DNA of 64,000 nucleotides from a bacterium. Its GTDB lineage: Bacteria > Patescibacteriota > Minisyncoccia > Minisyncoccales > JAGGXC01. Shown in pieces: positions 34,443-60,696 of the stretch. Position 1 is the stretch's first letter, and the number at the start of each line of letters is the position of its first letter. The position numbers were made by a program, and so were the translations under genes. A model generated the notes under the pieces. It ran no database searches. It was not told where the DNA came from and was given only the letters and a program-made list of their open reading frames with translations. The stretch is taken from the NCBI GenBank assembly GCA_021157625.1, contig JAGGWD010000003.1, forward strand, positions 10,633 to 74,632. The letters are read 5' to 3'.

Positions 34443-35549
34443 CTATTTTTCTTTCTTGAGAGCATTAACTATCTTTTGCATCTGCATTTCTCTTGAACCA
34501 TCAACCAAAATCAAATCTCCTTGAGAAATTTCTTCTCGCAAAGATTGAATTGCTTCCTGCATTGTGTCAAACTGAAAGATTTTTTCCTGAGGCATTCCTT
34601 TCTCCAATGCGCCTTTAGCAATAAATTTTGCTCTTGGTCCAATTGTAAACAATAAATCCGCACACTCACTCACCTTCTCCCCTATTGTCTCATGTGCTTC
34701 AATGGTATATTTTCCAATTCCTATTACATCTCCCAGAACTGCTATTTTTCTTTTTGATGTAAGAAAAGAAGGAGAGATTTTTTCTAAATCAATCTTCTTT
34801 AATATCAAAAGAGCTTCTATCATTGAGAACGCTGTGGCTGATTCTGAATCATCTAAAATCCAAGAATTCTTCTGTCCTTCAATTAACCTCATCTTGCCAG
34901 GCAAACTTCTGTATTTCTTAAGTCCTTCGGAAACCTTTACTAAATTTAGTTTTAAAATTTCCCCTACTGAAGCTGATGCTAGCGCAGAATAAATTTGTTC
35001 TTTACCAAAAATTCTCTCTAACCAGACAGGAACTACATTCCCTTTATAATTTATTTTAAAATTTGTACCTCCATTCAATTTTAGATCTGTTGCTCGAAAA
35101 TCTGCTCCTTCCTGAAAACCAAAAGTAAAGACATTGGCTGAACTTTTGTTTTTTATATCTCTCACCGTCTCATCATCAAAATTTAAGACCAAAAACCCAA
35201 AAGAAGGAATGTTTTGGGCAAGCCTGATTATGGGCTTTGCTTGATCTAATTCAGAAGCAAAGAAATCTACTTCAGGAGGAATATCTCCAAGAGCAGTAAC
35301 TACCAAAATTGGAATCTTTGATCTCTTAATCAACATTTCTGCTCTTTCAATATTTTGGGCTTCCAGAATAATTATATCGCTTCTCAAAAGATCAAATCGG
35401 GAAATGGATTTGAGTTTTCTTGTTTTGAAATATTGACTTAAAACACTAAAAATTGCCTCACTACTGCAAGCTTTATTTTTACCGACAACTATTATGGAAT
35501 AAGGTATTTTCAGAAATGAACTAATTTTTGAAAAAATAGGGTCAGACAT
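34443..35549 (-). CDS. Mur ligase family protein, MurF-like, lacking the N-terminal domain and the canonical P-loop
   Basis: The C-terminal half matches MurF (LDDSESATAFSMIEAL, VLGDVIGIG...H, VDGSREMQMQKIV). Where GxNGKT(T/S) should be, the sequence reads VVGKNKACS. Confidence 0.65.
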   Translation of the reverse strand: MSDPIFSKISSFLKIPYSIIVVGKNKACSSEAIFSVLSQYFKTRKLKSISRFDLLRSDIIILEAQNIERAEMLIKRSKIPILVVTALGDIPPEVDFFASELDQAKPIIRLAQNIPSFGFLVLNFDDETVRDIKNKSSANVFTFGFQEGADFRATDLKLNGGTNFKINYKGNVVPVWLERIFGKEQIYSALASASVGEILKLNLVKVSEGLKKYRSLPGKMRLIEGQKNSWILDDSESATAFSMIEALLILKKIDLEKISPSFLTSKRKIAVLGDVIGIGKYTIEAHETIGEKVSECADLLFTIGPRAKFIAKGALEKGMPQEKIFQFDTMQEAIQSLREEISQGDLILVDGSREMQMQKIVNALKKEK

Positions 35550-35563
35550 AGATTTCTTGAAAT

Positions 35564-37273
35564 TTATTCTTCATAATCAGGGGGTATTTGATAGTAGTTA
35601 ATGATATACTCAGCCAATTCTTTAAATAAAGGAGCAGCAGAATATTCAGCAGTTTTTGTCTTAGGATTATTTAATTTTACCAGAATTAAAATTTTTGGAT
35701 CAAAAGCAGGGAAAAAACCAATGAATGTCTGAATCGTTTTATCAGAATAACCAGGTTTATCTATACCCAAAGAAGACCAAGCCACTTGAGCAGTACCAGT
35801 TTTGCCAGCAATATAATAACCAGGAATTCTTGCTCCCTTCCCAAAACCATTCTCAACAACACTTACCAACATCGCCGTTACTTGGGAAGCGGTTTTTGGA
35901 GAAATAACAAAGGAGTCCTGAACCTCCGGATCAATTGTTATTTCCCTTCCATCTGATCTTATAATTTTTTTGACAAAATGAGGCCTTATCAATTTCCCTC
36001 CATTAGCAAAGACCCCAAAAGCTCTTGTAAGTTGAATGGGTGTCATTTCGATGCCTTGTCCAAATGAAGCAGTTACAAAATTAATCTCATATCCTTTTTT
36101 TAATTCTTTATTTTGAGAAGCAATTTCGCCTTGAAGATCTATACCTGTTTTGTCAAAAATACCAAATTTTTTTATATAATCCAAAAAAACCTGATGAGAA
36201 ATTTGTTGCTGAGCAAACACCGCACCTGTATTTATTGACTTCTCAAGCACCTCGGTCATAGTACATTTTCCATAAGAACGCTTGTTATAATTATAAATCT
36301 TAATCCCCCCTACCTTCACAAATCCCTTGTCTAGATAAGTAGTTTGGGGAGTTATCTTCCCTTCTTCTATAGCTGAAGCTAAAGTTATCGGTTTAAACAC
36401 TGATCCTGGCTCAAAAAACTTCTGCGAGAAAGGATTTACAAAAACTGAAAGGTCATACTCGAAGTATTCATTCGGATCAAAACCAGGAAAAGAAGCAGCA
36501 GCAAGAATTTCTCCATTTTGAGGATTGTAGACTATAATTTGACCATCCTCAAACTCCAATTTTTTCTTAGCCTCTTTTAATAGTTCTTCGGACTGAAACT
36601 GGATATTAGGATCTATTGTTAATATTAAGTCAGAACCTTCTGTAGGAGGGAGGGATTTTTTTGGATCAAAGAAGATCATTCTTCCCTCTACACTCCTTTC
36701 TCCAGCGATAATTCCTCCTTTTCCTCTAAGCTCCTTCTCCCAAAAACCTTCAATGCCATATTGTCCAATTCCTTGACCTCCTACAAACCCTAGCACATAT
36801 GAAGCTAACTCATTGTGAGGATAATACCGCTCAACATCTTTTTCTAAATAAACACCTTCTTTATTGAGTTCTTTAATTGCTTTAATCTCTTGATCTGTAA
36901 GATGCCTTTTTATTACCACGAAAGGTTCCTGTGCTTTCTGAAATTTTTCTTCAATTTCTTTTTTAGGTAAACCAACTGCATCAGCCAAAGAAAGCGTTGT
37001 TTTTTCTTTATCTTTTATCTTGTCAGGAGCTATAAAAACAAAAGTTGTTTCTTTGTTTGTAGCCAAAACATATAAATCTCCATTCTTGTCCTGCGCAAAT
37101 ATTTCTCCTCTATCAGGATCAACAACTTTCACTAACCGATGTTCTCCTTTTGCTAAAGCTTGATAAAAATCATGCTTCAGAATTTGGATATAAACTAAGC
37201 GACCAACGAGAGTCGCCCCAAAAAGAATTATCAAAAATAAAACTATATTAATACGCCTGGTAAGCATATTCAT
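35564..37273 (-). CDS. ftsI: Penicillin-binding protein 2/3 type transpeptidase (FtsI-like)
   Basis: N-terminal TM helix, PBP dimerisation domain, SVFK (SxxK), SIN (SxN) and KTGTA. Lies in the dcw cluster. Confidence 0.9.
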   Translation of the reverse strand: MNMLTRRINIVLFLIILFGATLVGRLVYIQILKHDFYQALAKGEHRLVKVVDPDRGEIFAQDKNGDLYVLATNKETTFVFIAPDKIKDKEKTTLSLADAVGLPKKEIEEKFQKAQEPFVVIKRHLTDQEIKAIKELNKEGVYLEKDVERYYPHNELASYVLGFVGGQGIGQYGIEGFWEKELRGKGGIIAGERSVEGRMIFFDPKKSLPPTEGSDLILTIDPNIQFQSEELLKEAKKKLEFEDGQIIVYNPQNGEILAAASFPGFDPNEYFEYDLSVFVNPFSQKFFEPGSVFKPITLASAIEEGKITPQTTYLDKGFVKVGGIKIYNYNKRSYGKCTMTEVLEKSINTGAVFAQQQISHQVFLDYIKKFGIFDKTGIDLQGEIASQNKELKKGYEINFVTASFGQGIEMTPIQLTRAFGVFANGGKLIRPHFVKKIIRSDGREITIDPEVQDSFVISPKTASQVTAMLVSVVENGFGKGARIPGYYIAGKTGTAQVAWSSLGIDKPGYSDKTIQTFIGFFPAFDPKILILVKLNNPKTKTAEYSAAPLFKELAEYIINYYQIPPDYEE

Positions 37274-37620: not shown

Positions 37621-38511
37621 TTATTTTATTTTTTTGGCTGCTCTTAGTTTTGCTGATCGACAGCGAGGATTCATTTTTACCTCTTCGGGTGTAGGAGTTT
37701 GAGGTTTTTTGGTTAATATTTCAAATATTCCCTTCTTGGATTGATCTTTCAGAAATTCTTTCACAACGCGATCCTCCAGAGAATGAAATGAAATAACTAC
37801 TAACCGCCCTCCGAGAGAAAGAACTTCAGGAACCTGAATTAACGCCTTCCTAAGATTTTCTATCTCATCGTTAACTGCTATTCTTAATGCAAGAAAGGTT
37901 CTGGTCGCAAAATGGATTCTTCTGTGATGATACCAAGGAGGAGTTGCTTTTCTTACTATCTCAACAAGCTGAGTGGTTGTGGTAATTGGATGTTTCCTTC
38001 TTTCTTGTTCTATTTTCCTGGCAATTCTTCTGGCAAATCTTTCTTCTCCATATTTTCTAAGAATCTCTACTATTTTTTGGAAAGGAAATTTATTCACTAT
38101 TTCCTGAGCAGTCAAGGGATTCTCTTTGGGATTGTATCTCATATCAAGATTTTCATCTTTCTGAAAAGAAAACCCTCTTTTGCTTTCTTCTATATGCCAG
38201 GTCAGGAATCCCAGATCAAACAAGATACCATCGGCCTGAAAATTGTATCTATCTGCAATTTTCTTTAACTCAGCAAAATTGCTACATACTACAATAAATC
38301 TTTCCTCAAGACCCATTCTTTTGAGCTTTTGTTTCAGATTTTGAACTACTTCTGGATCCCAGTCGATTCCTAAAATTCTTCCTTTGGGCTTGATCTTCTC
38401 TATAATTTCCAGAGAATGATTACCCTCACCAACAGTGGCATCAATGAAATTCTCATTAGTCTTTGGAGCTAGATATTTTATAACTTCTTTTTGAAGAACA
38501 GGGATGTGCAT
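37621..38511 (-). CDS. rsmH: 16S rRNA (cytosine1402-N4)-methyltransferase
   Basis: HIPVL start, DATVGEGNHS, FDLGF and SFHSLEDR motifs. Confidence 0.95.
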   Translation of the reverse strand: MHIPVLQKEVIKYLAPKTNENFIDATVGEGNHSLEIIEKIKPKGRILGIDWDPEVVQNLKQKLKRMGLEERFIVVCSNFAELKKIADRYNFQADGILFDLGFLTWHIEESKRGFSFQKDENLDMRYNPKENPLTAQEIVNKFPFQKIVEILRKYGEERFARRIARKIEQERRKHPITTTTQLVEIVRKATPPWYHHRRIHFATRTFLALRIAVNDEIENLRKALIQVPEVLSLGGRLVVISFHSLEDRVVKEFLKDQSKKGIFEILTKKPQTPTPEEVKMNPRCRSAKLRAAKKIK

Positions 38512-39129: not shown

Positions 39130-40413
39130 CTAATGAGGTAATGGAACAGGGAGTGACTGATCAGAAGGCATCTTTACGTCGGGTGGCAAATTCATTCCTT
39201 CTGGAAAACCACCAGATTGCATCATCATACCAAAAAAGATCTTCTGTAAAATATTCTGGATTAATTCTTTAACAGTCAAAAACTCATCAGGCGCTTTTAT
39301 CTCCCCAACCTTATTGAAATCAGACAATTCCGTCTTTAGAGAAATTGAAAGCGTACCTTGAAGGAACTGATCCATTTCCTGAATGTCTTTTTGTTCAATC
39401 TTTTCTCCTTTCTTGGCAGAAATCTTCTGAAGATATTCTATCAATGCTTGTTTAAGTTGTTGTAGATCAATCTCCTTGCTAGCTTCTACTCTGTAGAGGT
39501 ATTTATCTTTCTGTCCTATCCACAATTCATATCTTACATCTCCTATATGCTCAAAAATCTTATCTATCAGCAAAGGAAGTTCAATATCCCCCATAACTTC
39601 CTTTACCTGCTCTGGAGAGATTCCTTCCTCCATTAAAGAGGAAGAAGAATACTCAATTATCGTTTCAAAAACCTCAGGTAGCAGACTCTTCAAACCTTCT
39701 TTATTTACTACCAAACGATAATGATAAACTTTTATCTTCCCTATCTTCTCGTCAGGAAGTTCTTTCTCTACATAATAAAGTTTTTTGTCTTTCAGAAGCT
39801 GAGTAAGTTTTTCTTGAAGTTCTTTTTGCTGTGCCTCAGAAAGTCCTCCAAATTCTTGCTTTTGATAAGGAATACCCATTTCTTCATAGAGTTCCTTTAT
39901 ACTCTCCTCATCAATTTTTATCCATTTTCCTTGAATCTCATCCTTTAGAGAATCAAAGATAGAAGAAAATAGACCAATCTCTTCTCCTAGCTCTGGTGTT
40001 TCTGGAATAAGAGAAAGCAGATCAGAGAAAGCAGGCATTGATTTAATTTTCAAATAAACTGTCTCTCCTAGAAGGATGATTTCAGATGAAAATGGATACT
40101 TCTGTCCTTCTAAAGAAATTATAAAATCGATATCGGAATGCTCCTTTATATTTTCTTTCTCTCGCTGATCTATATCAGAGACACTCTTTAGTGTTATATC
40201 CATATTTCTTTCCTTCTCTCTGAGATCTAATGAGAACACACTATGAAAACTATCCAAAGCCTCCATTTTTTCGGTCATCTCTGATATTACTTCTTCTGGT
40301 TCTGGTCTAAATGGGTTCCACATCGGATTCCAGGTTTGGGTAAAAAGAGCACCTACAACTCCTGCTCCAGCAAGAATTATAATTGCAGCAACACCAACAA
40401 ATATCTTCTTCAT
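39130..40413 (-). CDS. Membrane-anchored extracytoplasmic protein, unknown function (acidic, possibly LolA-like fold)
   Basis: N-terminal TM or signal anchor (VGVAAIIILAGAGVVGAL). The body is Glu/Lys-rich. No catalytic motif recognised. Confidence 0.5.
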   Translation of the reverse strand: MKKIFVGVAAIIILAGAGVVGALFTQTWNPMWNPFRPEPEEVISEMTEKMEALDSFHSVFSLDLREKERNMDITLKSVSDIDQREKENIKEHSDIDFIISLEGQKYPFSSEIILLGETVYLKIKSMPAFSDLLSLIPETPELGEEIGLFSSIFDSLKDEIQGKWIKIDEESIKELYEEMGIPYQKQEFGGLSEAQQKELQEKLTQLLKDKKLYYVEKELPDEKIGKIKVYHYRLVVNKEGLKSLLPEVFETIIEYSSSSLMEEGISPEQVKEVMGDIELPLLIDKIFEHIGDVRYELWIGQKDKYLYRVEASKEIDLQQLKQALIEYLQKISAKKGEKIEQKDIQEMDQFLQGTLSISLKTELSDFNKVGEIKAPDEFLTVKELIQNILQKIFFGMMMQSGGFPEGMNLPPDVKMPSDQSLPVPLPH

Positions 40414-40591: not shown

Positions 40592-43144
40592 TTAGGGATT
40601 TATTATCAGCTTGAATTCTTGCGCATCAATAGCTACTCTATCACCTCTCTTTATCTGACCTCTCAGCAATGCTTCTGCTAAGATATTCTCTACCTTATCC
40701 TGAATCACTCTTCTCATTTCTCGAGCACCAAAAGTAGGGTCATAACCCAGTTCTACAATTTTTTCTTTCAGTTGAGGAGTTATAACAAATTCAATATCTT
40801 TTTTGGCAAGATTTTCTTTTGATTTAGAGAGCAAGAGCTCTGCTATTTTCAAAAGATGATCTTTAGTTAATGGCCTGAAAATCACAACGGCATCAAATCT
40901 GTTGATAAGTTCTGGCCTGAAGATACCTTTCTCAAAAATGAAATCAAGGAGTTTGTCTTTGATTTGAGAAAAAGGAATCTTTTCCTTTATTGCCTCAAGA
41001 ATTATTGTATAGCCTGCATTTGAAGTAGCAATGATAATAGTGTTCTGGAAATTTACTTTCCTGCCAAGACCATCAGTAAGATGACCTTCGTCGAGTACTT
41101 GCAAGAACAAATTTAAAATATTGGGATGCGCTTTCTCAAATTCGTCCAGCAATACCAAAGAAAAAGGATTTTCCTTAACTTGGGTAGTCAAAAGTCCCTC
41201 CTGGCCCGGCGATCCAATAAGACGCTCAATATCGCTAACCGACTGAAATTCGGACATATCTAAGCGAATCATTTTTTCTTCAGAACCAAAATAAATCTCT
41301 GCAAGTGCTTTGGCTGTTTCTGTCTTCCCTACCCCTGTAGGACCAAGGAAAAGAAAAGATCCCATTGGCCCTTTTCTTGTGGTAATTTCTGTTCTTGCTC
41401 TTCTTAATGCATCACTAATTTCCTCAACAGCCTCTTCTTGGTCAATGATTCTCTTATGAATTAACTCCTCCAATTTCAGGAGTTTTTCTCTTTCCTTGGA
41501 TTCAATTTCTCCTACAGGAATTTCTGTTTTATCTGTAAAAACCTTTGCCACATGAGAAGGTAAAACTACTTTTTCCTTAAGAGAAGAGGTATATATCATT
41601 ATCTCATCAAGCATATCAATAGCTTTTTTGGGAAACGGAATATCTTGGATATATTTTGCACAGAAAGAAATGATATCTCGAATTGCTTGATAAGAAACAA
41701 AAACCTTATATTTTTTCTCTAATACCAAAACGATCCTTTCTATAATCTTTAAAGTCTCTTTCTCTGAAAGTTCAGAGACTTCCACTTTCTCAAACAAAGA
41801 AAGAATGGAGGGGTTTTGTTCTATATATTTGTGCAAACCAGCATAAGTGGTAATAGCAATTATCTGAAATTGAGGAAGATGAAGATATTTAGAGATTACC
41901 CCAGAAATATCTATTGTGCCTGCACGTACACCTCCTCTTCCTAAATAGTTATGAAAATCATCAATAACCAGAATCACATTTCCTGCTCGAATTACTTCCT
42001 GAAATATCTTGTCTAAAATAAACTCCGTTTCTTCAATATCTTGAGCTTGAGCAGCAATCCCTGAAATATCCAGTTTCACTACTCTTTTGTAATTTAGCTC
42101 TGGACGCAATTGACCCAGAACACTTTTTTCAGCCAAAGCAAAAACAATAGTATTCCTTCCTGTACCAGGTTCTCCTACAAGCAGAACATTATTAATTTCA
42201 CTACGAGAAAGAATTATCTCCATTTGAGATAATTCTTTTTGGTGTCCTATCATCAAAGGAAACCTCCTCAATTTGGCCATCTCTGATAAATCAACAGAAA
42301 ATTTATCTAAAGTAACAGTATAACCAGCAGCCCAATCCTTTCCTAAACTTCCTCTTTTTATTAAATTCTCCCATTCCCAGAATTTTTTCTCTCGCTCAAT
42401 CTCATCTCTTAAAGATTCGTACCACCAAGTTAAATTTTCTATATCCTCTGGTTTCAGTTTCAATTCAATAAGAAGCTTTTTAAAAACTATATTCTCTCTC
42501 GCAAGAGCGGTTAAAAGATCTCCTGCTTTGACGCGAATATGATTTCTCTCTGAAGCAACACGCAACGCTTCAAAGATTACTCTCTGGAAATCATCCGAAT
42601 AGCGTTCCTCAAATTTTGACCTCTCTAAATTTTTAATATGCTCTTTTAAAGCTTCCTTTATCTCTTTTTGAGAAAGAAGAAGGCGAGAAAAAATAAAATT
42701 CAATTCAGGGTTTTCTCTCAAAAGAAAATAAGCCAGCATCGAAGAAGTTAGTGCTGGAATCTTTTTTGACTTAGCAAATTTTATAGAACGCCAGACAGCT
42801 AGTGCAGATTGATAATCTAAAAAATCGGCTAAATTAAACCGAGTGGGAAAATGAAGCGCTTCATCAAGAGTATATTTTAATTCAGGCTGCTTTAGTTTTA
42901 ACTCAAAGAAAAGATCTTCTATCCACGCACCAATAAAAAATCCAAAAAACAAAAGAAAAAATATCCAATTCAGGTCAATGACATCAGAAGAGAACTTCTT
43001 ACCAAAAACCCCAAAGAAAAATAAAATTCCAGTGATCAAAGATATAACAAGAAATAACTTCTTAAATATCTTAACCCCTTCAAACCACCGTCGCCATTTC
43101 AGCGCAGGATAAATTCCTGATTTTTTTAAATTAAAATTAAACAT
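40592..43144 (-). CDS. Membrane-anchored Clp/Hsp100-type double AAA+ ATPase (ClpC-like)
   Basis: Two N-terminal TM helices (about aa 30-47 and 59-76) and Clp-N-like repeats. The D1 module has GEPGTGRNT and VIDDFH. The D2 module has canonical GPTGVGKTE and LLDEFEKAH. No IGF/LGF ClpP-docking loop was seen. Confidence 0.8.
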   Translation of the reverse strand: MFNFNLKKSGIYPALKWRRWFEGVKIFKKLFLVISLITGILFFFGVFGKKFSSDVIDLNWIFFLLFFGFFIGAWIEDLFFELKLKQPELKYTLDEALHFPTRFNLADFLDYQSALAVWRSIKFAKSKKIPALTSSMLAYFLLRENPELNFIFSRLLLSQKEIKEALKEHIKNLERSKFEERYSDDFQRVIFEALRVASERNHIRVKAGDLLTALARENIVFKKLLIELKLKPEDIENLTWWYESLRDEIEREKKFWEWENLIKRGSLGKDWAAGYTVTLDKFSVDLSEMAKLRRFPLMIGHQKELSQMEIILSRSEINNVLLVGEPGTGRNTIVFALAEKSVLGQLRPELNYKRVVKLDISGIAAQAQDIEETEFILDKIFQEVIRAGNVILVIDDFHNYLGRGGVRAGTIDISGVISKYLHLPQFQIIAITTYAGLHKYIEQNPSILSLFEKVEVSELSEKETLKIIERIVLVLEKKYKVFVSYQAIRDIISFCAKYIQDIPFPKKAIDMLDEIMIYTSSLKEKVVLPSHVAKVFTDKTEIPVGEIESKEREKLLKLEELIHKRIIDQEEAVEEISDALRRARTEITTRKGPMGSFLFLGPTGVGKTETAKALAEIYFGSEEKMIRLDMSEFQSVSDIERLIGSPGQEGLLTTQVKENPFSLVLLDEFEKAHPNILNLFLQVLDEGHLTDGLGRKVNFQNTIIIATSNAGYTIILEAIKEKIPFSQIKDKLLDFIFEKGIFRPELINRFDAVVIFRPLTKDHLLKIAELLLSKSKENLAKKDIEFVITPQLKEKIVELGYDPTFGAREMRRVIQDKVENILAEALLRGQIKRGDRVAIDAQEFKLIINP

Positions 43145-46214: not shown

Positions 46215-47807
46215 CTATAGAGCTTTTTGAATTTTTTGAAATCTCTCCTCAAGTTCCTTTTTCATTTCTTGATGGAATTTTTCATCGTAGTCTTTCACAA
46301 GTTCTCTTATCTGAGCACAGAAATTCTGCTCAGGACAAAAGCCTATTGTATGACATTTAGGGACAAGAAAAGAAGAAAACCATCCATATCCTTTTGCAGA
46401 AAGAAGAGTTTTTATTGCCTTAACCTCTTTGAGAGTATTTCTTCTCATTTCCTCTTCAGCAGTTTGACAAAGCCGTAAAGGATAATAGCCTGTCAAAAAA
46501 TTATATAAATTATATTCCTGCAACACATCAATTTTTACAGCTCTAGGAATTAAAAAGATTGCGTCTCTGGGAGGTATGTTTTCTTGAATTAATCTATCAT
46601 AACTCTCAAAAGCAAAAAGAGCGACTCTTAGGTATTCTTTTAAAAATTCATTATTATTTTTAATCAAAGGAGGGATCGAGAAAACTTTTTCAATTTCGGT
46701 GATTAATTTTTTGTTCAATGTGCCTTTCTGTATTTTGGTTTTGAACTTTGAAAATTTCTCTCCTGCTCTTTGAATACAATAATAAATCGATTCAACAACC
46801 TGAGGACAAGTTCTATGTCTCTTTTTCTCACCCCAGACACGCCACGCAACAGAAGAGAGAATTTTTATATCAATAGCAGAATTATAGTCTCTTATAATGC
46901 GACGTCTCCACAAGAGCAATTCATACCATTTTTTCTTTATTTCTTTCTTATTTCTGGCAATTTTTCTAATTGCTTTATCAAGATTAAGGATTTCTTTTTT
47001 AAACTCTTTATTAAAAGAAACATTGAAAGAAACAATTTTAAATCCCCTCTTGAGATCGGGTTTTAGTGCACGTACCAAATTAGAATTCTTGGGATTTTTA
47101 AAGATATTGGGATAAAAATAGGTATTCCGTGGAGCTATCAAACGAGTGCTGTAGAGCAAATCTACTCCTAACTTCTTTAAAGCGCCTTCTATTTCCTTTA
47201 TCAAAATACCAACCTCTCTGGGCATCCATTCTTTTTCTATCTCATATTCTCTTTTCAAAGAAATAAAAGATTCAAGCGGAAGTTGAACAATTCCTGTTCC
47301 ATAAATTCCATATTGAAGAATTTTGGAAGAAACATCTTTTCCAATACCTTTCTGGCACAAAAGTTGGTAAAAACTAATCGTTTTTTGAGCACAAGATTTA
47401 TAAATATAAAAAGCCTTCTTTTTTTTAAGGATATTTTTAGGATAAACTATGTCTTTGAAAGTGGTATCTGTTCTTCTTCCTGAACTTACCAGAAAGGAAC
47501 CAAAATACATACCTGTAAGAACAGAATCAAGAAACTTACTCCCCTCGTATACAAAGCAAATCACCGGAGTAGTAGACAAAGAGGCGTGACCGCGCAAAGA
47601 GGAATTTCTTAAAATTCTTTTTATTTTTTGCTCTACCCTCTCTCCTTTCTTTAAACTTTCCTTTATTAACTTCTGAACTGACTTTCCTTTAAAAGTAAGT
47701 AAAGCAGAGAAAGCAACAATCTCTTGAGGACTAAAAAAACCTATTTTCTTTTTCAAAATAGGTAGAATCCCTAAGAATTTTATTTTTAAATTATCTGTAG
47801 TAATCAT
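46215..47807 (-). CDS. ThyX-like (Thy1 fold) protein, internally duplicated, 530 aa
   Basis: The C-half carries RHR (aa 330-332, nt 46812-46820) plus R..LP and N..L.NF...R....A.EE patterns like ThyX. The N-half aligns to the same fold (RGHASL..., SSGRR) but has GMY in place of RHR. Confidence 0.5.
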   Translation of the reverse strand: MITTDNLKIKFLGILPILKKKIGFFSPQEIVAFSALLTFKGKSVQKLIKESLKKGERVEQKIKRILRNSSLRGHASLSTTPVICFVYEGSKFLDSVLTGMYFGSFLVSSGRRTDTTFKDIVYPKNILKKKKAFYIYKSCAQKTISFYQLLCQKGIGKDVSSKILQYGIYGTGIVQLPLESFISLKREYEIEKEWMPREVGILIKEIEGALKKLGVDLLYSTRLIAPRNTYFYPNIFKNPKNSNLVRALKPDLKRGFKIVSFNVSFNKEFKKEILNLDKAIRKIARNKKEIKKKWYELLLWRRRIIRDYNSAIDIKILSSVAWRVWGEKKRHRTCPQVVESIYYCIQRAGEKFSKFKTKIQKGTLNKKLITEIEKVFSIPPLIKNNNEFLKEYLRVALFAFESYDRLIQENIPPRDAIFLIPRAVKIDVLQEYNLYNFLTGYYPLRLCQTAEEEMRRNTLKEVKAIKTLLSAKGYGWFSSFLVPKCHTIGFCPEQNFCAQIRELVKDYDEKFHQEMKKELEERFQKIQKAL

Positions 47808-49666: not shown

Positions 49667-50680
49667 TCAAAAATAAGGCTGAAAATATTTTGAAATTTTC
49701 ACCTCTCTTTTCTTAATTTCTTTTATTTTACCATTTCTTATTTTAATCTCCAAGACAAGACCTCTCATTGTATCCTGTAAAAAACTTTGGTCAAAAACAA
49801 AGTTACCTAAACTATAAGCAATCCAACCATTTTTGTATTTTATCACTGGCTGGATGACATGAGGATGATGACCTATTACTATATCAGCTCCATTCTCAAT
49901 GCACAGTTTAGCAAATTTTCTCTGAAAATCATCGGGAAAAGAAACATATTCAACTCCTGAATGCAAAGAAACTATCAAAATATCTGTTTGTTTCTTTGCA
50001 TCTCTTATCTGTTGGACAATTTGAGGAAAATAATCCTCATCGATCCAGGCTATTCCAGGCATATTTTCCTTTGCAGACCAATTATTAGGTCCTAGATTTG
50101 TATATGCAAGAAAACCCACTTTTGTGTTTTTTATCTTTATTATTTTCAAAGAATAGGCTTCTTTTTTATTCATTCCTGCTCCCACATATTCAATATTGTT
50201 TTTTTTCAAAATATTCATTGTATCTATAAGAGCAACTCTTCCATAATCAAACATATGATTATTTGCTAATGACAAGATATCAAATCCTGCATATCTCAAT
50301 CCTTCTACTGCCCTGGGATCCATACGAAAAGAATAAATACTTCCTGACTTCGTGCCTCTATGTGAAATAGGACCTTCAAGATTTCCAAACAAAATATCTG
50401 CTTTATTTAGATTATTAGCTATTTTCAAAAAAGGAAAACGAAAATCTCCATTGCCTTTTTCCTCTATCACATACTCTACCCCTCTATTTAGCATTATATC
50501 CCCCACAACCAAAAGAGTAATTTCAGAACTTCTTGATTTTTTTAGCAATTTCATCAAATGATAATAGGAAATTGCTGAATTAATCTCGTCTTCTAAAACG
50601 GAGTGATTCAGGCAAAAAAATAAAGCACAAAAGAAAAAAACACACCAAATAAAAATTATAACCATTAAAAAATGCTTCAT
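49667..50680 (-). CDS. CapA-family metallophosphoesterase (poly-gamma-glutamate capsule synthesis-like)
   Basis: N-terminal TM helix plus VVGDIMLNR, GNLEGPIS, LANNHMFDYG and GHHPHVIQP. Confidence 0.8.
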   Translation of the reverse strand: MKHFLMVIIFIWCVFFFCALFFCLNHSVLEDEINSAISYYHLMKLLKKSRSSEITLLVVGDIMLNRGVEYVIEEKGNGDFRFPFLKIANNLNKADILFGNLEGPISHRGTKSGSIYSFRMDPRAVEGLRYAGFDILSLANNHMFDYGRVALIDTMNILKKNNIEYVGAGMNKKEAYSLKIIKIKNTKVGFLAYTNLGPNNWSAKENMPGIAWIDEDYFPQIVQQIRDAKKQTDILIVSLHSGVEYVSFPDDFQRKFAKLCIENGADIVIGHHPHVIQPVIKYKNGWIAYSLGNFVFDQSFLQDTMRGLVLEIKIRNGKIKEIKKREVKISKYFQPYF

Positions 50681-50756: not shown

Positions 50757-52745
50757 TTAAATATCCAAATTCTTGACCATTTTGGCATGGGTCTGAATAA
50801 ATCTTTTTCGAGGAAGAACTTCTTTTCCCATTAGAGTATCAAAAATGCGATCGGCTTCTTTGGCATCTTCAATAGTCACTCTAAGAAGTATTCTATTCTT
50901 AGGATCCATTGTAGTTTCCCAAAGCTGATCGGGATTCATTTCTCCCAAACCTTTATAGCGTTGAATGCTGGGTTTCAGATTCTGTTTTTTCATATCTTCA
51001 AGAATTTCAGCTTTATCACTTTCGGTATAAGCATATTCTACCCTCTTCCCTGCCTGAATTCGATACAAAGGCGGCTGAGCAATATAGAGATATCCCTTCT
51101 CAATAATAGGCTGAAAATACCGAAAGAACAATGTCAAAAGTAATGTTCTTATATGCGCTCCATCAACATCAGCATCAGTCATAATGATTATCCGATGATA
51201 TCTTAATTTATTCAAATCAAAATCCTCAGCAATCGCGGTTCCTAGTGCTATAATCAACGATCTGATTTCTTTTGAAGCCAGTATCCTATCAAGCCGAGCT
51301 CTTTCCACATTCAAAATCTTGCCTCGGAGAGGAAGAATCGCCTGAAACCTTCGATCACGAGCTTGTTTACTGGAACCTGCTGCGCTCTCTCCTTCTACAA
51401 TAAAAAGTTCAGATTCTTCAGGATTGCGAGAACTACAATCAGCAAGTTTTCCAGGAAGAGTTAATCCTCCCAACGCTCCTTTTCGCAATACAGTCTGACG
51501 TGCAGCCTTCGCTGCTTTTCTGGCCTTCTGAGCTAAAAGACAATTCTCAATAATAGCTCGTGCATCCTGAGGATTTCTCTCCAAGAAATCTTCCAAACCT
51601 TCACTCACTACTCTTTCTACTGCTGATTTTGCTTCAGGATTACCCAACCGAGCTTTAGTTTGACCTTCAAATTGAGGATTCTGTAGTTTTACAGAAACCA
51701 CTCCTGTAAAACCTTCCCGAATATCCTGTCCAGTAAAATTCTCATCTTTCTCCTTGAGATAGCCTTCTTTTCGAGCGTAATCATTAAGGGTTCTTGTTAA
51801 AGCACTTCTAAAGCCTGTTAAGTGAGTGCCGCCTTCTCCTGTATAGATATTGTTAGCAAAACTCTCCTCAAAACACTCTCTTTCTTGAGTATATTGAAAA
51901 GCAGCTTCCACTATAACACCGTTGACTTCTCCGGAAGTATAGAAGATATTTTTTTGGCGAGGTTCGGAATTTTGAACTAGATATTTAATATAGGACTTAA
52001 GCCCTCCCTCAAAATAAAAAGTATAGGTGAAATGTTTCAGAGGATCTTTCTCTCTTAAATCTTTAACAGTGATTCTTACTCCTCTGGTTAAATAAGCTTG
52101 TTGACGAAGATGATTCAAAATTCGATTTCGGTCAAATTTAATCTCTTTGAAAATCTCTGGATCTGGCTCAAAAATGACTGTAGTTCCCGTTTGATTACAT
52201 TTACCCACTTTTTTTACCTTTGTCTTAGCCACTCCTTTGGCATATTCTTGGACATATTTATTCCCCTCCCGACATACCTCAACTCTCATCCATCTAGATA
52301 AAGCACAAACAACAGAAACCCCTACTCCATGTAGACCTCCAGCTACTTGGTATGCTTTTCCACCAAATTTTGCTCCGGCATGCAAAGTAGTCATTACTGT
52401 TTCCAGAGCAGATTTGCCAGTTTGGGGATGTTTCCCAACAGGAATTCCTCTTCCATCATCAGAGGTGCTTATTCTATTTCCTGCCAACAATGAAACTTCA
52501 ATGTTTTTAGCATATCCAGCAATTGCTTCATCTAATGAATTATCTACGCACTCCCATATCAAATGATGAAGACCATCAGGGCCAGTAGAACCAATATACA
52601 TTCCGGGCCTTTTCCGCACTGGCTCAAGCCCCTTAAGCACATAAATATCTTTAGCCTCATAGCTGGATTCCTTTACAACATTCTTCTTTGTTGCTTTAGT
52701 CTCTGAAGATGGTTTTTTTGAATTCTTTTTTTGTTTTTTTGCCAT
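50757..52745 (-). CDS. gyrB: DNA gyrase subunit B
   Basis: LEPVRKRPGMYIG, GGLHGVG, EGESAGGS (read EGESAAGS) and the PLRGKILNVE Toprim motif. There is a ~25-aa Lys-rich N-terminal extension. Confidence 0.95.
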   Translation of the reverse strand: MAKKQKKNSKKPSSETKATKKNVVKESSYEAKDIYVLKGLEPVRKRPGMYIGSTGPDGLHHLIWECVDNSLDEAIAGYAKNIEVSLLAGNRISTSDDGRGIPVGKHPQTGKSALETVMTTLHAGAKFGGKAYQVAGGLHGVGVSVVCALSRWMRVEVCREGNKYVQEYAKGVAKTKVKKVGKCNQTGTTVIFEPDPEIFKEIKFDRNRILNHLRQQAYLTRGVRITVKDLREKDPLKHFTYTFYFEGGLKSYIKYLVQNSEPRQKNIFYTSGEVNGVIVEAAFQYTQERECFEESFANNIYTGEGGTHLTGFRSALTRTLNDYARKEGYLKEKDENFTGQDIREGFTGVVSVKLQNPQFEGQTKARLGNPEAKSAVERVVSEGLEDFLERNPQDARAIIENCLLAQKARKAAKAARQTVLRKGALGGLTLPGKLADCSSRNPEESELFIVEGESAAGSSKQARDRRFQAILPLRGKILNVERARLDRILASKEIRSLIIALGTAIAEDFDLNKLRYHRIIIMTDADVDGAHIRTLLLTLFFRYFQPIIEKGYLYIAQPPLYRIQAGKRVEYAYTESDKAEILEDMKKQNLKPSIQRYKGLGEMNPDQLWETTMDPKNRILLRVTIEDAKEADRIFDTLMGKEVLPRKRFIQTHAKMVKNLDI

Positions 52746-56134: not shown

Positions 56135-56163
56135 ATTATATCTCAAATCTTAAACAATGTCAA
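56135..56163 (-). promoter_or_regulatory. Perfect consensus sigma70 promoter
   Basis: Minus strand: TTGACA (56163-56158), a 17-nt spacer, then TATAAT (56140-56135). The predicted start is at about 56128-56130. Confidence 0.7.
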
Positions 56164-57631: not shown

Positions 57632-59026
57632 TTATTCTCTCAGTATACCATAAAAAGGTGATAAAGAGTAATTCTTCCAGATCCAGCGATAGATTCTCTG
57701 AGTATCTGCCCGCAAGTTTCTGGAATCCAAGAGGACGATCGCTATATTGCGGATTTTGCCCGTGTCTGTCATAAATCTAAAGACAAAAACTCCATTATAA
57801 CCCGATTGTTTAATATAGCCTGTTTTCCCTCCCACAAAACTTTTGTCGTAAATAAAGATATTTTTATTCCATAGATCCTTAATCTTAAAATGAACTTTTC
57901 CAAAACTAGGAACTTCTTTTGCTTTGGTGATCTCCCAAAGAAGGGGTCGGGTATTTGAGATATATCGAGCTAACTGAAAAAGATCTTGAGCAGTAGAGAT
58001 ATTTCTGTAGTCAAAACCATGAGGGTCAACAAACTCTGTGTTTTTCATAAGAATTGATTTAGCTTTCTCATTCATCTTTTCTATAGTTTTGGCTCTACCT
58101 AAATAACCTGCTAAAACTTCAGCAGCATCATTTGATGACTCAATCAAAAGAGGATAAAACAATTCTACTGGTCTGAATTTTTTGCCTTCTCTCAATCCCT
58201 CTGTTGAACCATAGGCTTCCAGCATTGTTTTGTTTACCGTGATATATTGTCTCAAATCAACATTTTCTGACACAACTACCGCAGTCATTAGTTTCGTCAA
58301 AGAAGCAATTGGCAATTCTTTCTGAATGTCTTTCTGCAAAAATACAAAACCTGAATCTAAATCAGCTACCAGATAACTCCTTGCTGAAATCTCAGGTGGA
58401 GAAAATAAATTCTTGTTTTCAAATTGATACTGATCTTTTTCCTTTGCAACTACTAAAACAGGCATATTTAATTCGCTTAACTCATAAATATCTCTAGCAT
58501 CTTTGTCTTTGAGTCGGATACATCCTCCTGAGACCGACGAGATAAGTTTTCTTCCTCCTGGATAGTAAGGCTCGCCATGGATATAATATTTTCCATAATA
58601 ATGAAGAGCCCAAGGCATATAAACATCAGAGACAACAGAAAAACTTAATTTATGCCCATCTAAAATTTTGTAAAGCCCTGCTGCTGACCCTCCCCAATTT
58701 TGAGGATCACCAATTGTTAAAATTGAGGCTACTCTTATTGGTTTCCCCTCTTTATATAACCTTACCTTCATCAAAGAAAGATTTACTTCCAAAAAATCTT
58801 TCTTTTGGGCAATGAATTTGGTTTTCAGATCAGAAATTGTCTCAAGGTATAGTGGTGCTTCCTTAAGATTGATATCTTCTGAACTGGTACTGGAGAAAAC
58901 CTCAGATAAAACATCAGAAGAATTAAAAGAATAATCCTCCCCTACTTTCTGAGGAATTAAAGAACCAAAAAGAAAAATGAAAACAAACACGAGAAAGTAT
59001 ATTACTGACCTCCTCAAAAAACTCAT
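57632..59026 (-). CDS. Fusion protein: L,D-transpeptidase (YkuD) domain plus serine DD-carboxypeptidase (S11/PBP5-like) domain
   Basis: N-terminal TM helix. The YkuD motif is YYIHG(150)...SGGC(169)IRL. The S11 motifs are S242-LTK, S298-SN and K401-TG. Confidence 0.8.
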   Translation of the reverse strand: MSFLRRSVIYFLVFVFIFLFGSLIPQKVGEDYSFNSSDVLSEVFSSTSSEDINLKEAPLYLETISDLKTKFIAQKKDFLEVNLSLMKVRLYKEGKPIRVASILTIGDPQNWGGSAAGLYKILDGHKLSFSVVSDVYMPWALHYYGKYYIHGEPYYPGGRKLISSVSGGCIRLKDKDARDIYELSELNMPVLVVAKEKDQYQFENKNLFSPPEISARSYLVADLDSGFVFLQKDIQKELPIASLTKLMTAVVVSENVDLRQYITVNKTMLEAYGSTEGLREGKKFRPVELFYPLLIESSNDAAEVLAGYLGRAKTIEKMNEKAKSILMKNTEFVDPHGFDYRNISTAQDLFQLARYISNTRPLLWEITKAKEVPSFGKVHFKIKDLWNKNIFIYDKSFVGGKTGYIKQSGYNGVFVFRFMTDTGKIRNIAIVLLDSRNLRADTQRIYRWIWKNYSLSPFYGILRE

Positions 59027-59237: not shown

Positions 59238-59915
59238 TTATCCAACAGGAACTTCTTTTACCACTTCAATGTCTTTGTTGTCCAGAACTTTTACTGTAAA
59301 GAAGATATTAGAATCATCGCCAGTAGTTATTACAAACTCTTTCTTATCTGAAGGAACTTCAAAAATTACTTCCTGATCGTAATAGGTTTGATTATCTCCA
59401 AAACATCCTTCATTGAATCTTTTGTTTATAGGAGCAGCCAGATCTCCTTGCTCATTCAGAACCATTCTAAGAGAAACATCTATACATATTTTAGCTCCGT
59501 ATCGACCTATATTATCTATTTTAAAATATAAAGTAAGTGCGTTAATCTCTTTGCCTGTATTTTTATCAACAAACGAAGGAATTTTTCTTTTTCCCAAAGA
59601 AACACCTGTAAGACTGTATTTAAAATAGCGAGTCTTCGTGTAATAAGAAATCCATTCAATAGGATAGGGATAAGAAAAGTCTTTACGAACCAAGTTTGGA
59701 TTTTCTGATATACTTTCTGTGCCTGTCTGGCTTTCCATCCTATTCTCACTTTCCGGTACTTTCTTCTCCAATTCTGTCGTTTTGCCAATCAATTCTTCTA
59801 CATTACTGTTCTCATAAGTCTTTGTATATTGCCAATATGTCGCTGCTATTGCAGAAATCAAAACAGCAAATACGACAATTATAATTAAAGATGCTGGTAT
59901 ACCTTCTTTAAACAT
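59238..59915 (-). CDS. Membrane-anchored hypothetical protein (possible DUF4352-like beta-sandwich)
   Basis: N-terminal TM helix. The C-terminal region has alternating beta-strand-like patterns. The family assignment is a guess. Confidence 0.45.
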   Translation of the reverse strand: MFKEGIPASLIIIVVFAVLISAIAATYWQYTKTYENSNVEELIGKTTELEKKVPESENRMESQTGTESISENPNLVRKDFSYPYPIEWISYYTKTRYFKYSLTGVSLGKRKIPSFVDKNTGKEINALTLYFKIDNIGRYGAKICIDVSLRMVLNEQGDLAAPINKRFNEGCFGDNQTYYDQEVIFEVPSDKKEFVITTGDDSNIFFTVKVLDNKDIEVVKEVPVG

Positions 59916-59933: not shown

Positions 59934-60281
59934 TTATTTCTTTTTTAGAGCAAAATAACGGACAATAATACAAGCAACAATATATGAGACAATCACTGAA
60001 ATCCATTGAAGAATCCAGTAGAGAAAAATTATACCACTACCTGCACTCTTGCAATTTATCAGAACCGGCGCGCAAATCATTCGAGGGTATAAAAGATGGC
60101 TTATTCTAAAAAATGTCATGAAAATTCCCAAAAGAGGCGAAACCCAAGACAAAAGAGGTAACATAAAGGGAAAACAAGGCCCATCGGGACCACAAATCGG
60201 AGCAGGAATAATAAATATCCAAAAAAGCAAAAACCAACCAATTTTGGGAAGAGTGGGTTTGAGAAATTGTTTCCAGTTCAT
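59934..60281 (-). CDS. Small Cys-containing polytopic membrane protein, unknown function
   Basis: 115 aa with 3-4 TM segments and several Cys residues (PICGPDGPCF). Confidence 0.45.
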   Translation of the reverse strand: MNWKQFLKPTLPKIGWFLLFWIFIIPAPICGPDGPCFPFMLPLLSWVSPLLGIFMTFFRISHLLYPRMICAPVLINCKSAGSGIIFLYWILQWISVIVSYIVACIIVRYFALKKK

Positions 60282-60386: not shown

Positions 60387-60463
60387 TGGCGGGGACGACC
60401 GGACTCGAACCGGCAACCTTCGCTGTGACAGAGCGACGATCTAACCAATTGATCTACGCCCCC
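60387..60463 (-). tRNA. tRNA-Asp (anticodon GUC), CCA encoded
   Basis: GGGGGCG acceptor, anticodon loop CUGUCAC, T-loop UUCGAGU and a 3' GCCA. Confidence 0.9.
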
Positions 60464-60498
60464 TCTTAATTTTTATTTCAATTTCCTCTATCGTGAGG

Positions 60499-60571
60499 TG
60501 CCGGTGGCTGGATTCGAACCAGCGACCTTAGCCTTATGAAGACTCTGCTCTAACCACTGAGCTACACCGGC
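60499..60571 (-). tRNA. tRNA with CAU anticodon, elongator type (Met, or Ile2 if lysidinylated)
   Basis: GCCGGUG/CACCGGC acceptor with G1-C72, anticodon loop UUCAUAA, T-loop UUCGAAU. Confidence 0.85.
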
Positions 60572-60582
60572 ATTGTGGTTGT

Positions 60583-60611
60583 AATTTGCTCCGAAGATAT
60601 CGGAGCAAATT
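60583..60611 (-). other. Perfect 12-bp hairpin between two tRNA genes (processing or termination signal)
   Basis: AATTTGCTCCGA-AGATA-TCGGAGCAAATT. Confidence 0.5.
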
Positions 60612-60625
60612 AATTAAAATCCTTG

Positions 60626-60696
60626 TTGCGGGGGCCGGAATTGCACCGGCGCCTTGGGCTTATGGGACCCACGAGGTACTACTCCTCCACCCCGCG
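60626..60696 (-). tRNA. Initiator-like tRNA-fMet (anticodon CAU) with atypical loops
   Basis: The acceptor CGCGGGG...CCCCGCA-A (C1 opposite A72) matches the E. coli tRNA-fMet acceptor as recalled. The D-loop is AGUAGUA, the anticodon loop CCCAUAA and the T-loop UGCAAUU. Confidence 0.7.

Follow-up and report, generated by a model that had tools for sequence, protein, structure and literature searches.

L,D-transpeptidases (LDTs) need tetrapeptide stems as donors, and this need underlies both the beta-lactam bypass of Enterococcus faecium and Escherichia coli and the essentiality of LDTs in Clostridioides difficile. In E. coli, the tetrapeptide donors of YcbB/LdtD are supplied by the DD-carboxypeptidase DacA (PBP5) (PMC5089857), and in C. 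difficile, DacA and DacC feed Ldt1-5 (PMC13344953); in both cases the coupling was demonstrated for separate enzymes. Helicobacter pylori Csd6 and Campylobacter jejuni Pgp2 consist of a YkuD-fold domain with a non-LDT accessory domain and act on tetrapeptide stems produced by other peptidases (PMC4599014; PMC8038945). Here, we analyzed a gene from a 64,000-nucleotide stretch of contig JAGGWD010000003.1 from a Patescibacteriota bacterium (hereafter the window), which encodes a YkuD domain of the L,D-transpeptidase type and a peptidase S11 (DD-peptidase) domain in a single polypeptide, the YkuD-S11 fusion. The fusion unites the same two families as the E. coli and C. difficile pairs, and we propose for it the same order of events, from pentapeptide to tetrapeptide to 3-3 cross-link. 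Whereas those pairs are separate polypeptides, the two activities would here be coupled within one chain through a short conserved linker. The PBP5_C domain and the C-terminal membrane helix of DacA-type enzymes are both missing, an N-terminal transmembrane (TM) anchor being present instead. The fusion would also resemble Csd6 and Pgp2 in acting on tetrapeptide stems; these two differ from it in that they only trim, carry an NTF2-like accessory domain and have no S11 module. The most informative new facts are the invariance of the LDT site set against an often dead S11 site, the existence of parallel fusions with M23 and PGA_cap domains, and the presence of a classical penicillin-binding protein (PBP) in the same window.

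Scanning the 464-residue protein against Pfam gave matches to PF03734 (YkuD) over residues 78-192 (E=1e-9, 39.5 bits for a gathering cutoff of 23.4) and to PF00768 (S11) over residues 208-432, corresponding to profile positions 5-235 of 239 (E=3.8e-37, 128.5 bits for a cutoff of 27.6). This confirms the joining of an L,D-transpeptidase and a DD-peptidase domain that had been read from the DNA in a first-pass annotation, which had also correctly placed the TM anchor and, behind it, the YkuD motifs IHG (residues 149-151) and SGGCIRL with Cys169. The spacing of the YkuD consensus H-x(14-18)-[ST]-x-G-C is found between H150 and S166-G-G-C169, and the lid region is short, with 115 residues aligned to 144 positions of the PF03734 profile. 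The second half had been described as a complete S11/PBP5-type module. Its S242-LTK and K401-TG motifs stand as described, while the catalytic serine of the SxN motif is S297 rather than S298, and no match to the C-terminal domain PBP5_C was found at E<=1. Because of this missing match, and because the protein ends about 30 residues past the S11 match, we call the module single-domain; it appears to be a generic S11 peptidase and not PBP5-type in the strict sense. The same Pfam scan detected no peptidoglycan-binding domain of the LysM, PG_binding or SH3 kind. The tether that follows the anchor has a predicted local distance difference test (pLDDT) score below 50 over residues 22-55 in the AlphaFold2 (AF2) model, and the combination of TM helix and disordered tether would fit a surface-anchored enzyme. 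Positive residues precede the helix and predict an N-in/C-out topology, with both catalytic domains outside the membrane. The GC content of the gene (0.33) is the same as that of the remainder of the window.

The conservation of the two active sites was compared in a close clade of 48 sequences, in which full-length homologues range from 96% down to 53% identity, and in a wide set of 93 full-length divergent fusions with 26-52% identity. In the close clade, H150, G151, G168, C169, S297, S298 and K401 are invariant (48/48), and S242, K245, N299, T402 and G403 are each kept in at least 90% of the sequences, the sole exception being P0026. The S11 catalytic residues are intact in 47 of the 48, down to 53% identity. 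Both active sites are thus under purifying selection in this clade, and the window protein belongs to the S11-intact subgroup. The wide set separates the two sites: H150, G151, G168 and C169 of the YkuD domain are kept in all 93 divergent fusions, and R171 is an arginine in 79, whereas the S11 nucleophile S242 is kept in 58, K245 and S297 in 67 each, N299 in 53 and K401 in 54. Only 40 of the 93 retain all seven scored catalytic residues. Because the motif flanks align cleanly, the losses are real substitutions and not misalignments. They are scattered across the family yet stable within clades: the intact or degenerate state of S11 requires about 19-21 changes on a neighbor-joining tree, whereas shuffled labels require 31 on average, and members of the P0150 clade as distant as 57% identity still have His or Tyr for Ser and His for Lys, with the remaining fold conserved. 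The identity of the S11 half to the query is 0.41 in intact and 0.34 in degenerate members, that of the YkuD half being 0.38 in both. As judged from these alignments, the L,D-transpeptidase site is the constant of the family, and the S11 fold a component that is always retained and often catalytically dead.

The fusion is a large family, not a rare variant, and is generically annotated by NCBI. A homologue search returned 3372 matches, and in all 120 of the 90%-identity clusters listed, PF03734 is accompanied by PF00768; these clusters, from NCBI, JGI, ENA and Logan assemblies, span 55-96% identity and lengths of about 375-510 aa. When residues 56-205, the YkuD part, were used by themselves in an exhaustive HMMER search, 477 representatives were obtained at 50% identity; in the best 150 of these, S11 lies directly behind YkuD in 118, and most of those lacking S11 end no more than about 50 residues after the YkuD domain, which is consistent with truncated database records. 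The same architecture is present in the close relatives L001 and L002 and in the closed 689-kb genome CP179887.1. Where homologues are named, they are called 'L,D-transpeptidase family protein' or 'serine hydrolase' and come from Patescibacteria, Parcubacteria and Nealsonbacteria. Nearly all named carriers belong to the candidate phyla radiation (CPR)/Patescibacteria, a restriction that applies to the named members, taxon names being almost lacking in the clusters of ten divergent representatives. A single scan of genome contigs with query-specific peptides, which bears on the presence of the fusion outside the CPR, gave just two full-length relatives and stand-alone S11 genes. Fusion candidates in Blautia, Faecalimonas and Verrucomicrobiaceae, whose matches seemed to begin in the YkuD region, were rejected as the family HMM finds no YkuD domain in them. 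Neither the literature searched nor a review of LDTs from 2025 (PMC12729407) contained a description of a YkuD-S11 fusion, and the NCBIfam scan gave no family-specific model for it, in line with the first-pass annotation, which knew of no characterisation of the architecture. We regard the fusion as a real and widespread version of a known enzyme pairing that is so far uncharacterised.

An AF2 model of the whole chain, built on the 48-sequence family alignment, has a pLDDT of 87.9 and a predicted TM-score (pTM) of 0.85, with a dip to a pLDDT of about 72 in the inter-domain linker, in which the same alignment shows at least 90% conservation at K195, D198 and Y200. The pTM value together with the short conserved linker suggests a fixed arrangement of the two domains. 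Searching the PDB with the whole protein using Foldseek yielded matches to S11 alone, with a query-normalized TM-score (TMq) of at most 0.47; hence, no solved structure covers both domains. When the YkuD half was modelled separately (pLDDT 88.7), its top 50 PDB matches were all L,D-transpeptidases (TMq 0.56-0.65, probability 1.00), including Ldtfm, LdtMt1/2/3/5, Mycobacterium abscessus Ldt2 and Bacillus subtilis YkuD, and neither Csd6 nor Pgp2 appeared among these 50. The catalytic fold and the His...Ser/Thr-x-Gly-Cys motif are common to the YkuD half and to Ldtfm of E. faecium, LdtMt1/2/5 and B. subtilis YkuD. However, the identity to characterised YkuD LDTs is only 14-22%, the SHGC that is common in these is SGGC here, the lid is short, and an S11 peptidase takes the place of LysM, PG_binding or Ig-like accessory domains. 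The YkuD half also has a WGGS loop, which we take to be the counterpart of the usual LDT motif TPxG.

For the S11 half, the best structural match is B. subtilis DacB (PBP5*, 3mfd; E=4.8e-18), which has 29-30% identity to residues 208-457 in the Foldseek alignment and an identical geometry of the SxxK, SxN and KTG motifs, followed by Mycobacterium tuberculosis Rv2911 and Rv3330, PBP7 and PBP5/6 (E from 5e-18 to 1e-13). By sequence, the PDB matches are DacB (E=1.3e-24), PBP7 and PBP5. PBP7/PbpG (6muq, 6azi), M. tuberculosis Rv2911 (DacB1) and Listeria PBPD2 likewise have no C-terminal beta-sandwich domain; in contrast to DacB, PBP7/PbpG, Rv2911/Rv3330 and PBPD2, the S11 module of the window protein is fused behind YkuD. 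The best NCBIfam model is that of the PBP7-type DD-endopeptidase, NF008668, with 97.2 bits for an equivalog cutoff of 294, and the DacA, DacC and DacD equivalogs score 52, 60 and 71 bits for cutoffs of 694, 765 and 610, respectively. With scores far under every equivalog cutoff, the module is not an orthologue of any named enzyme, and its likeness to PBP7 goes no further than the single-domain layout of S11.

The same YkuD subtype occurs in other architectures. Pfam matches show Peptidase_M23 in place of S11 in P0215, P0253, P0259 and P0269, and NCBI gives the name 'peptidoglycan DD-metalloendopeptidase family protein' to the proteins clustered with P0215 and assigns them to Candidatus Paceibacterota. 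Going by this label, the M23 partner would likewise cleave cross-links and yield tetrapeptides, and the parallel YkuD-M23 fusions fit the theme of a stem- or cross-link-cleaving hydrolase joined to an LDT. P0269 is a protein of 1061 aa that contains DUF4012 besides YkuD and Peptidase_M23. A third partner, PGA_cap, is found in the orders PGA_cap+YkuD+S11, YkuD+S11+PGA_cap and Memo+PGA_cap+YkuD (P0142, P0248 and P0250), and a stand-alone PGA_cap gene is located downstream of the fusion gene in the window. By the Rosetta-stone principle, these fusions suggest a role for PGA_cap proteins in the same remodelling of the wall. A subgroup of YkuD-S11 proteins of 600-680 aa carries about 250 additional residues at the N-terminus (P0137, P0141, P0152, P0159, P0170, P0175-P0177, P0182, P0187 and P0198), for which no Pfam match was obtained in the two members scanned, P0137 and P0141.

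The window also contains a class B PBP with intact catalytic motifs, which together with the flanking mraW and Mur ligase genes forms a small dcw-type cluster, and it encodes MreB; no second copy of YkuD or S11 is present in the 64 kb. The first-pass annotation had concluded that the wall of this organism would be largely independent of classical 4-3 transpeptidation. As an intact class B PBP and MreB are encoded in the same window, this conclusion is unsupported. An LDT-based bypass of the E. faecium M512 or E. coli YcbB type, with D,D-transpeptidase PBPs absent or dispensable, is likewise not what the window shows. Insensitivity to beta-lactams, which had been linked to it, does not follow either and is doubtful. 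S11 modules are themselves penicillin-binding targets, and inhibiting S11 would starve the fused LDT. Work in C. difficile argues that a block of carboxypeptidases starves LDTs (PMC10980060).

We propose, with a probability of roughly 0.6, that the fusion is a membrane-tethered, extracytoplasmic two-domain enzyme of peptidoglycan remodelling, in which the S11 module supplies tetrapeptides to the YkuD domain, and whose activity would add to the wall made by the classical class B PBP without replacing it. The S11 module would cleave the D-Ala4-D-Ala5 bond of pentapeptide stems or, alternatively, open 4-3 cross-links at the D-Ala4-diamino-acid bond as a PBP7-like endopeptidase; a tetrapeptide would remain in both cases. 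The YkuD domain would then take this tetrapeptide as acyl donor via Cys169 and His150, giving mainly 3-3 cross-links, with trimming of the stem to a tripeptide as a further possible outcome. The S11 partner would be catalytic in some lineages, including the window clade, and an inactive retained fold elsewhere; there, it is probably a module that binds or positions stem peptides. A role of the S11 fold in binding, positioning or scaffolding would account most economically for the family as a whole. Since the feeding of LDTs by DD-carboxypeptidases, on which the first-pass annotation had built, is established for separate enzymes (PMC5089857; PMC13344953), such coupling is plausible in the fusion. 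In the window protein and its close clade, all catalytic residues of both domains are present. Channelling of substrate towards 3-3 links, as further suggested, cannot explain why the fusion exists across the family, because over half of the divergent representatives have lost the S11 site and the YkuD site is invariant.

Several points weigh against this proposal. The loss of S11 catalytic residues in 53 of the 93 divergent representatives implies that the supply of donors by a fused S11 module is dispensable for the family, and in the window clade it is from the retention of residues that we infer coupling. The ranking of its relatives points both ways on the bond cleaved by S11, the best NCBIfam match being a PBP7-type endopeptidase and the best PDB match a carboxypeptidase. 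YkuD-fold enzymes can be pure L,D-carboxypeptidases, as exemplified by Csd6 (PMC4599014) and Pgp2 (PMC8038945), and the sequence of the YkuD domain, with its short lid, would suit cross-linking and trimming alike. A muropeptide analysis of a CPR organism was not found in the literature searched, and a bPBP survey (PMC12516126) does not mention Patescibacteria. The fusion points to an unstudied side of the cell-wall biology of Patescibacteria. As a natural single-chain fusion, it offers a system to ask whether it matters that donors are made physically close to the site of L,D-transpeptidation, with S11-active and S11-dead family members as built-in controls.

The alternative that retains most weight, although it is clearly the less likely one, is that both domains serve for trimming: S11 would remove D-Ala5 and YkuD, as an L,D-carboxypeptidase, D-Ala4, so that pentapeptides would end up as tripeptides unable to act as donors. 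The effect would be less cross-linking, control of cell shape or the release of D-Ala, and no 3-3 links would be formed. Two YkuD-fold proteins, Csd6 and Pgp2, act purely as L,D-carboxypeptidases, trimming stems and governing cell shape (PMC4599014; PMC8038945), the LDTs of C. difficile, wild type as well as catalytic mutants, also yield tripeptides (PMC10980060), the lid of the YkuD domain is reduced here, and MreB and a class B PBP are at hand for the primary cross-links. On the other hand, the structural neighbours described above for the YkuD half comprise genuine 3-3 transpeptidases and generic LDTs only, with neither trimming enzyme among the top 50, and given the many members that combine a dead S11 with a conserved YkuD site, strictly sequential trimming from penta- to tetra- to tripeptide by the two fused domains cannot be the conserved role.

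It is also conceivable, if somewhat less so than trimming, that S11 is mainly non-catalytic even where its motifs are present, and that it binds D-Ala-D-Ala or tetrapeptide stems and targets the LDT, for instance to nascent peptidoglycan, with donors coming from elsewhere. All seven catalytic residues are kept in 40 of the 93 divergent fusions, compared to all 93 for H150 and C169. The clean alignment of the motif flanks, the many and scattered losses, the stability of the P0150-clade replacements on a conserved fold, and the lack of another peptidoglycan-binding domain such as LysM, PG_binding or SH3 all agree with a binding role. Yet the retention of the catalytic residues in 47 of the 48 sequences of the window clade reflects purifying selection on catalysis itself, beyond that on the fold, and S11 has diverged further from the query in degenerate than in intact members at equal divergence of YkuD. 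On a larger scale, one may speculate that the fusion is a lineage-wide cross-linking module of the CPR, in which the S11 fold, active or dead, reads stems and docks the LDT on D-Ala-terminated ones. The walls of Patescibacteria would then have 3-3 links as a major component, S11-intact clades would hand over the tetrapeptide intramolecularly, and the M23 and PGA_cap fusions would be parts of a modular CPR wall toolkit. We regard this extension as tentative and rather unlikely as a whole.

An offensive enzyme directed at the peptidoglycan of a host or prey bacterium, and not at the wall of the producer, is very improbable. CPR bacteria are generally episymbionts, and YkuD-fold L,D-carboxypeptidase/transpeptidase effectors of type VI secretion systems attack the walls of rivals (bioRxiv 10.1101/2020.02.18.954545; PMC9638812). 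Against this, the seemingly uncleaved N-terminal TM anchor and the tether of about 30 residues would hold the protein at the membrane of the producer, no toxin-delivery or immunity gene is apparent near the fusion gene, and the gene is broadly conserved, single-copy-like and surrounded by housekeeping genes. Finally, the first-pass annotation had singled out positions from about 58400 to 58450 for a possible frameshift or misassembly that joined adjacent YkuD and dacB-like genes. The sole hint of this is short YkuD-only entries such as P0121 (227 aa, 100% identical to aa 56-205), which mostly look truncated. Such an artefact is refuted, since the junction lies in one continuous frame and the architecture with its conserved linker recurs in all 120 listed clusters from independent assemblies, in 118 of the best 150 representatives, and in L001, L002 and the closed genome.

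Table 1. Position of the YkuD-S11 fusion gene, its predicted parts and related genes in the window (aa, amino acids; nt, nucleotides; ORF, open reading frame).
Feature	Position (nt)	Strand	Basis and remarks
YkuD-S11 fusion gene	57632..59026	(-)	464-aa ORF; both Pfam domains above gathering thresholds
Predicted N-terminal TM anchor, aa 4-25, LRRSVIYFLVFVFIFLFGSLIP	58952..59017	(-)	Kyte-Doolittle mean up to 2.45; AF2 helix 4-21
Low-complexity tether, aa 26-55	58862..58951	(-)	Poorly conserved; length and sequence vary in the 48-sequence alignment
YkuD domain, aa 60-193	58448..58849	(-)	PF03734 match and domain-only AF2 model
YkuD catalytic His motif, I149-H150-G151	58574..58582	(-)	Position in translation and conservation
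YkuD catalytic Cys motif, S166-G-G-C169-I-R-L, aa 166-172	58511..58531	(-)	Position in translation and conservation
Inter-domain linker, aa 193-207, VAKEKDQYQFENKNL	58406..58450	(-)	Short, 15 residues; unbroken reading frame
Single-domain S11 module, aa 208-457	57656..58405	(-)	PF00768 match, PDB sequence matches, Foldseek
S11 SxxK motif, S242-L-T-K245 (nucleophile Ser, general-base Lys)	58292..58303	(-)	Position in translation
S11 SxN motif, S297-S298-N299	58130..58138	(-)	Alignment to B. subtilis DacB 'SGN' (catalytic Ser, S297)
S11 KTG motif, K401-T402-G403	57818..57826	(-)	Position in translation
FIST_N + FIST_C protein, 460 aa	56237..57619	(-)	Pfam; 13 nt downstream of fusion gene
Stand-alone PGA_cap (CapA-like) gene	49667..50680	(-)	PF09587, E=2e-77; five genes downstream of fusion gene
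mraW	37621..38511		Flanks class B PBP
Class B PBP	35564..37273	(-)	PF00905, E=7e-72; PF03717 (PBP_dimer), E=9e-20; SVFK291, SIN346, KTG491 intact
Mur ligase	34443..35549		Flanks class B PBP

Downstream of the fusion gene, the window encodes, in this order, a FIST_N/FIST_C protein, pheS, pheT, gyrB and the PGA_cap gene; upstream are two small TM proteins, tRNA-Asp/Met/Met, a 180-aa protein, gatA and mreB. The FIST gene is probably co-transcribed with the fusion gene, and its product has sensor domains only, without an output domain. An orthologue, 71% identical in L001 and 63% in L002, comes after the fusion gene in these two relatives; in L081 and L083, none is adjacent to it. As this neighbour is kept in close relatives only, the FIST protein was dropped as a candidate for a conserved functional partner. 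A scan for promoters and terminators around the fusion gene gave counts not above the shuffled expectation. A sigma-70 consensus matching at 12 of 12 positions (TTGACA-17-TATAAT) is located at 56135-56163 (-), between the FIST gene and pheS. The two predicted membrane proteins just upstream, of 225 aa (59238-59915 (-)) and 115 aa (59934-60281 (-)), have no Pfam match, and ORFs matching in size and order are present in L002. The tRNA cluster upstream of the locus, at 60387-60696 (-), comprises tRNA-Asp(GTC) and two tRNA-Met(CAT).

Further observations concern other genes of the window. GyrB has 662 aa here (50757-52745 (-)) and 1200 aa in L001 (6422-10024 (+)), where it is longer because of an intein (Intein_splicing and a weak LAGLIDADG match) inserted after the Toprim region. 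Between a clpB-like gene (40592-43144) and mraW, a 427-aa ORF (39130-40413 (-)) has no Pfam match at E<=0.01. A 530-aa protein encoded at 46215-47807 (-) matches Thy1 (ThyX) in two stretches, the better one at aa 323-460, with much of its length unannotated, and exceeds the usual size of a flavin-dependent thymidylate synthase.

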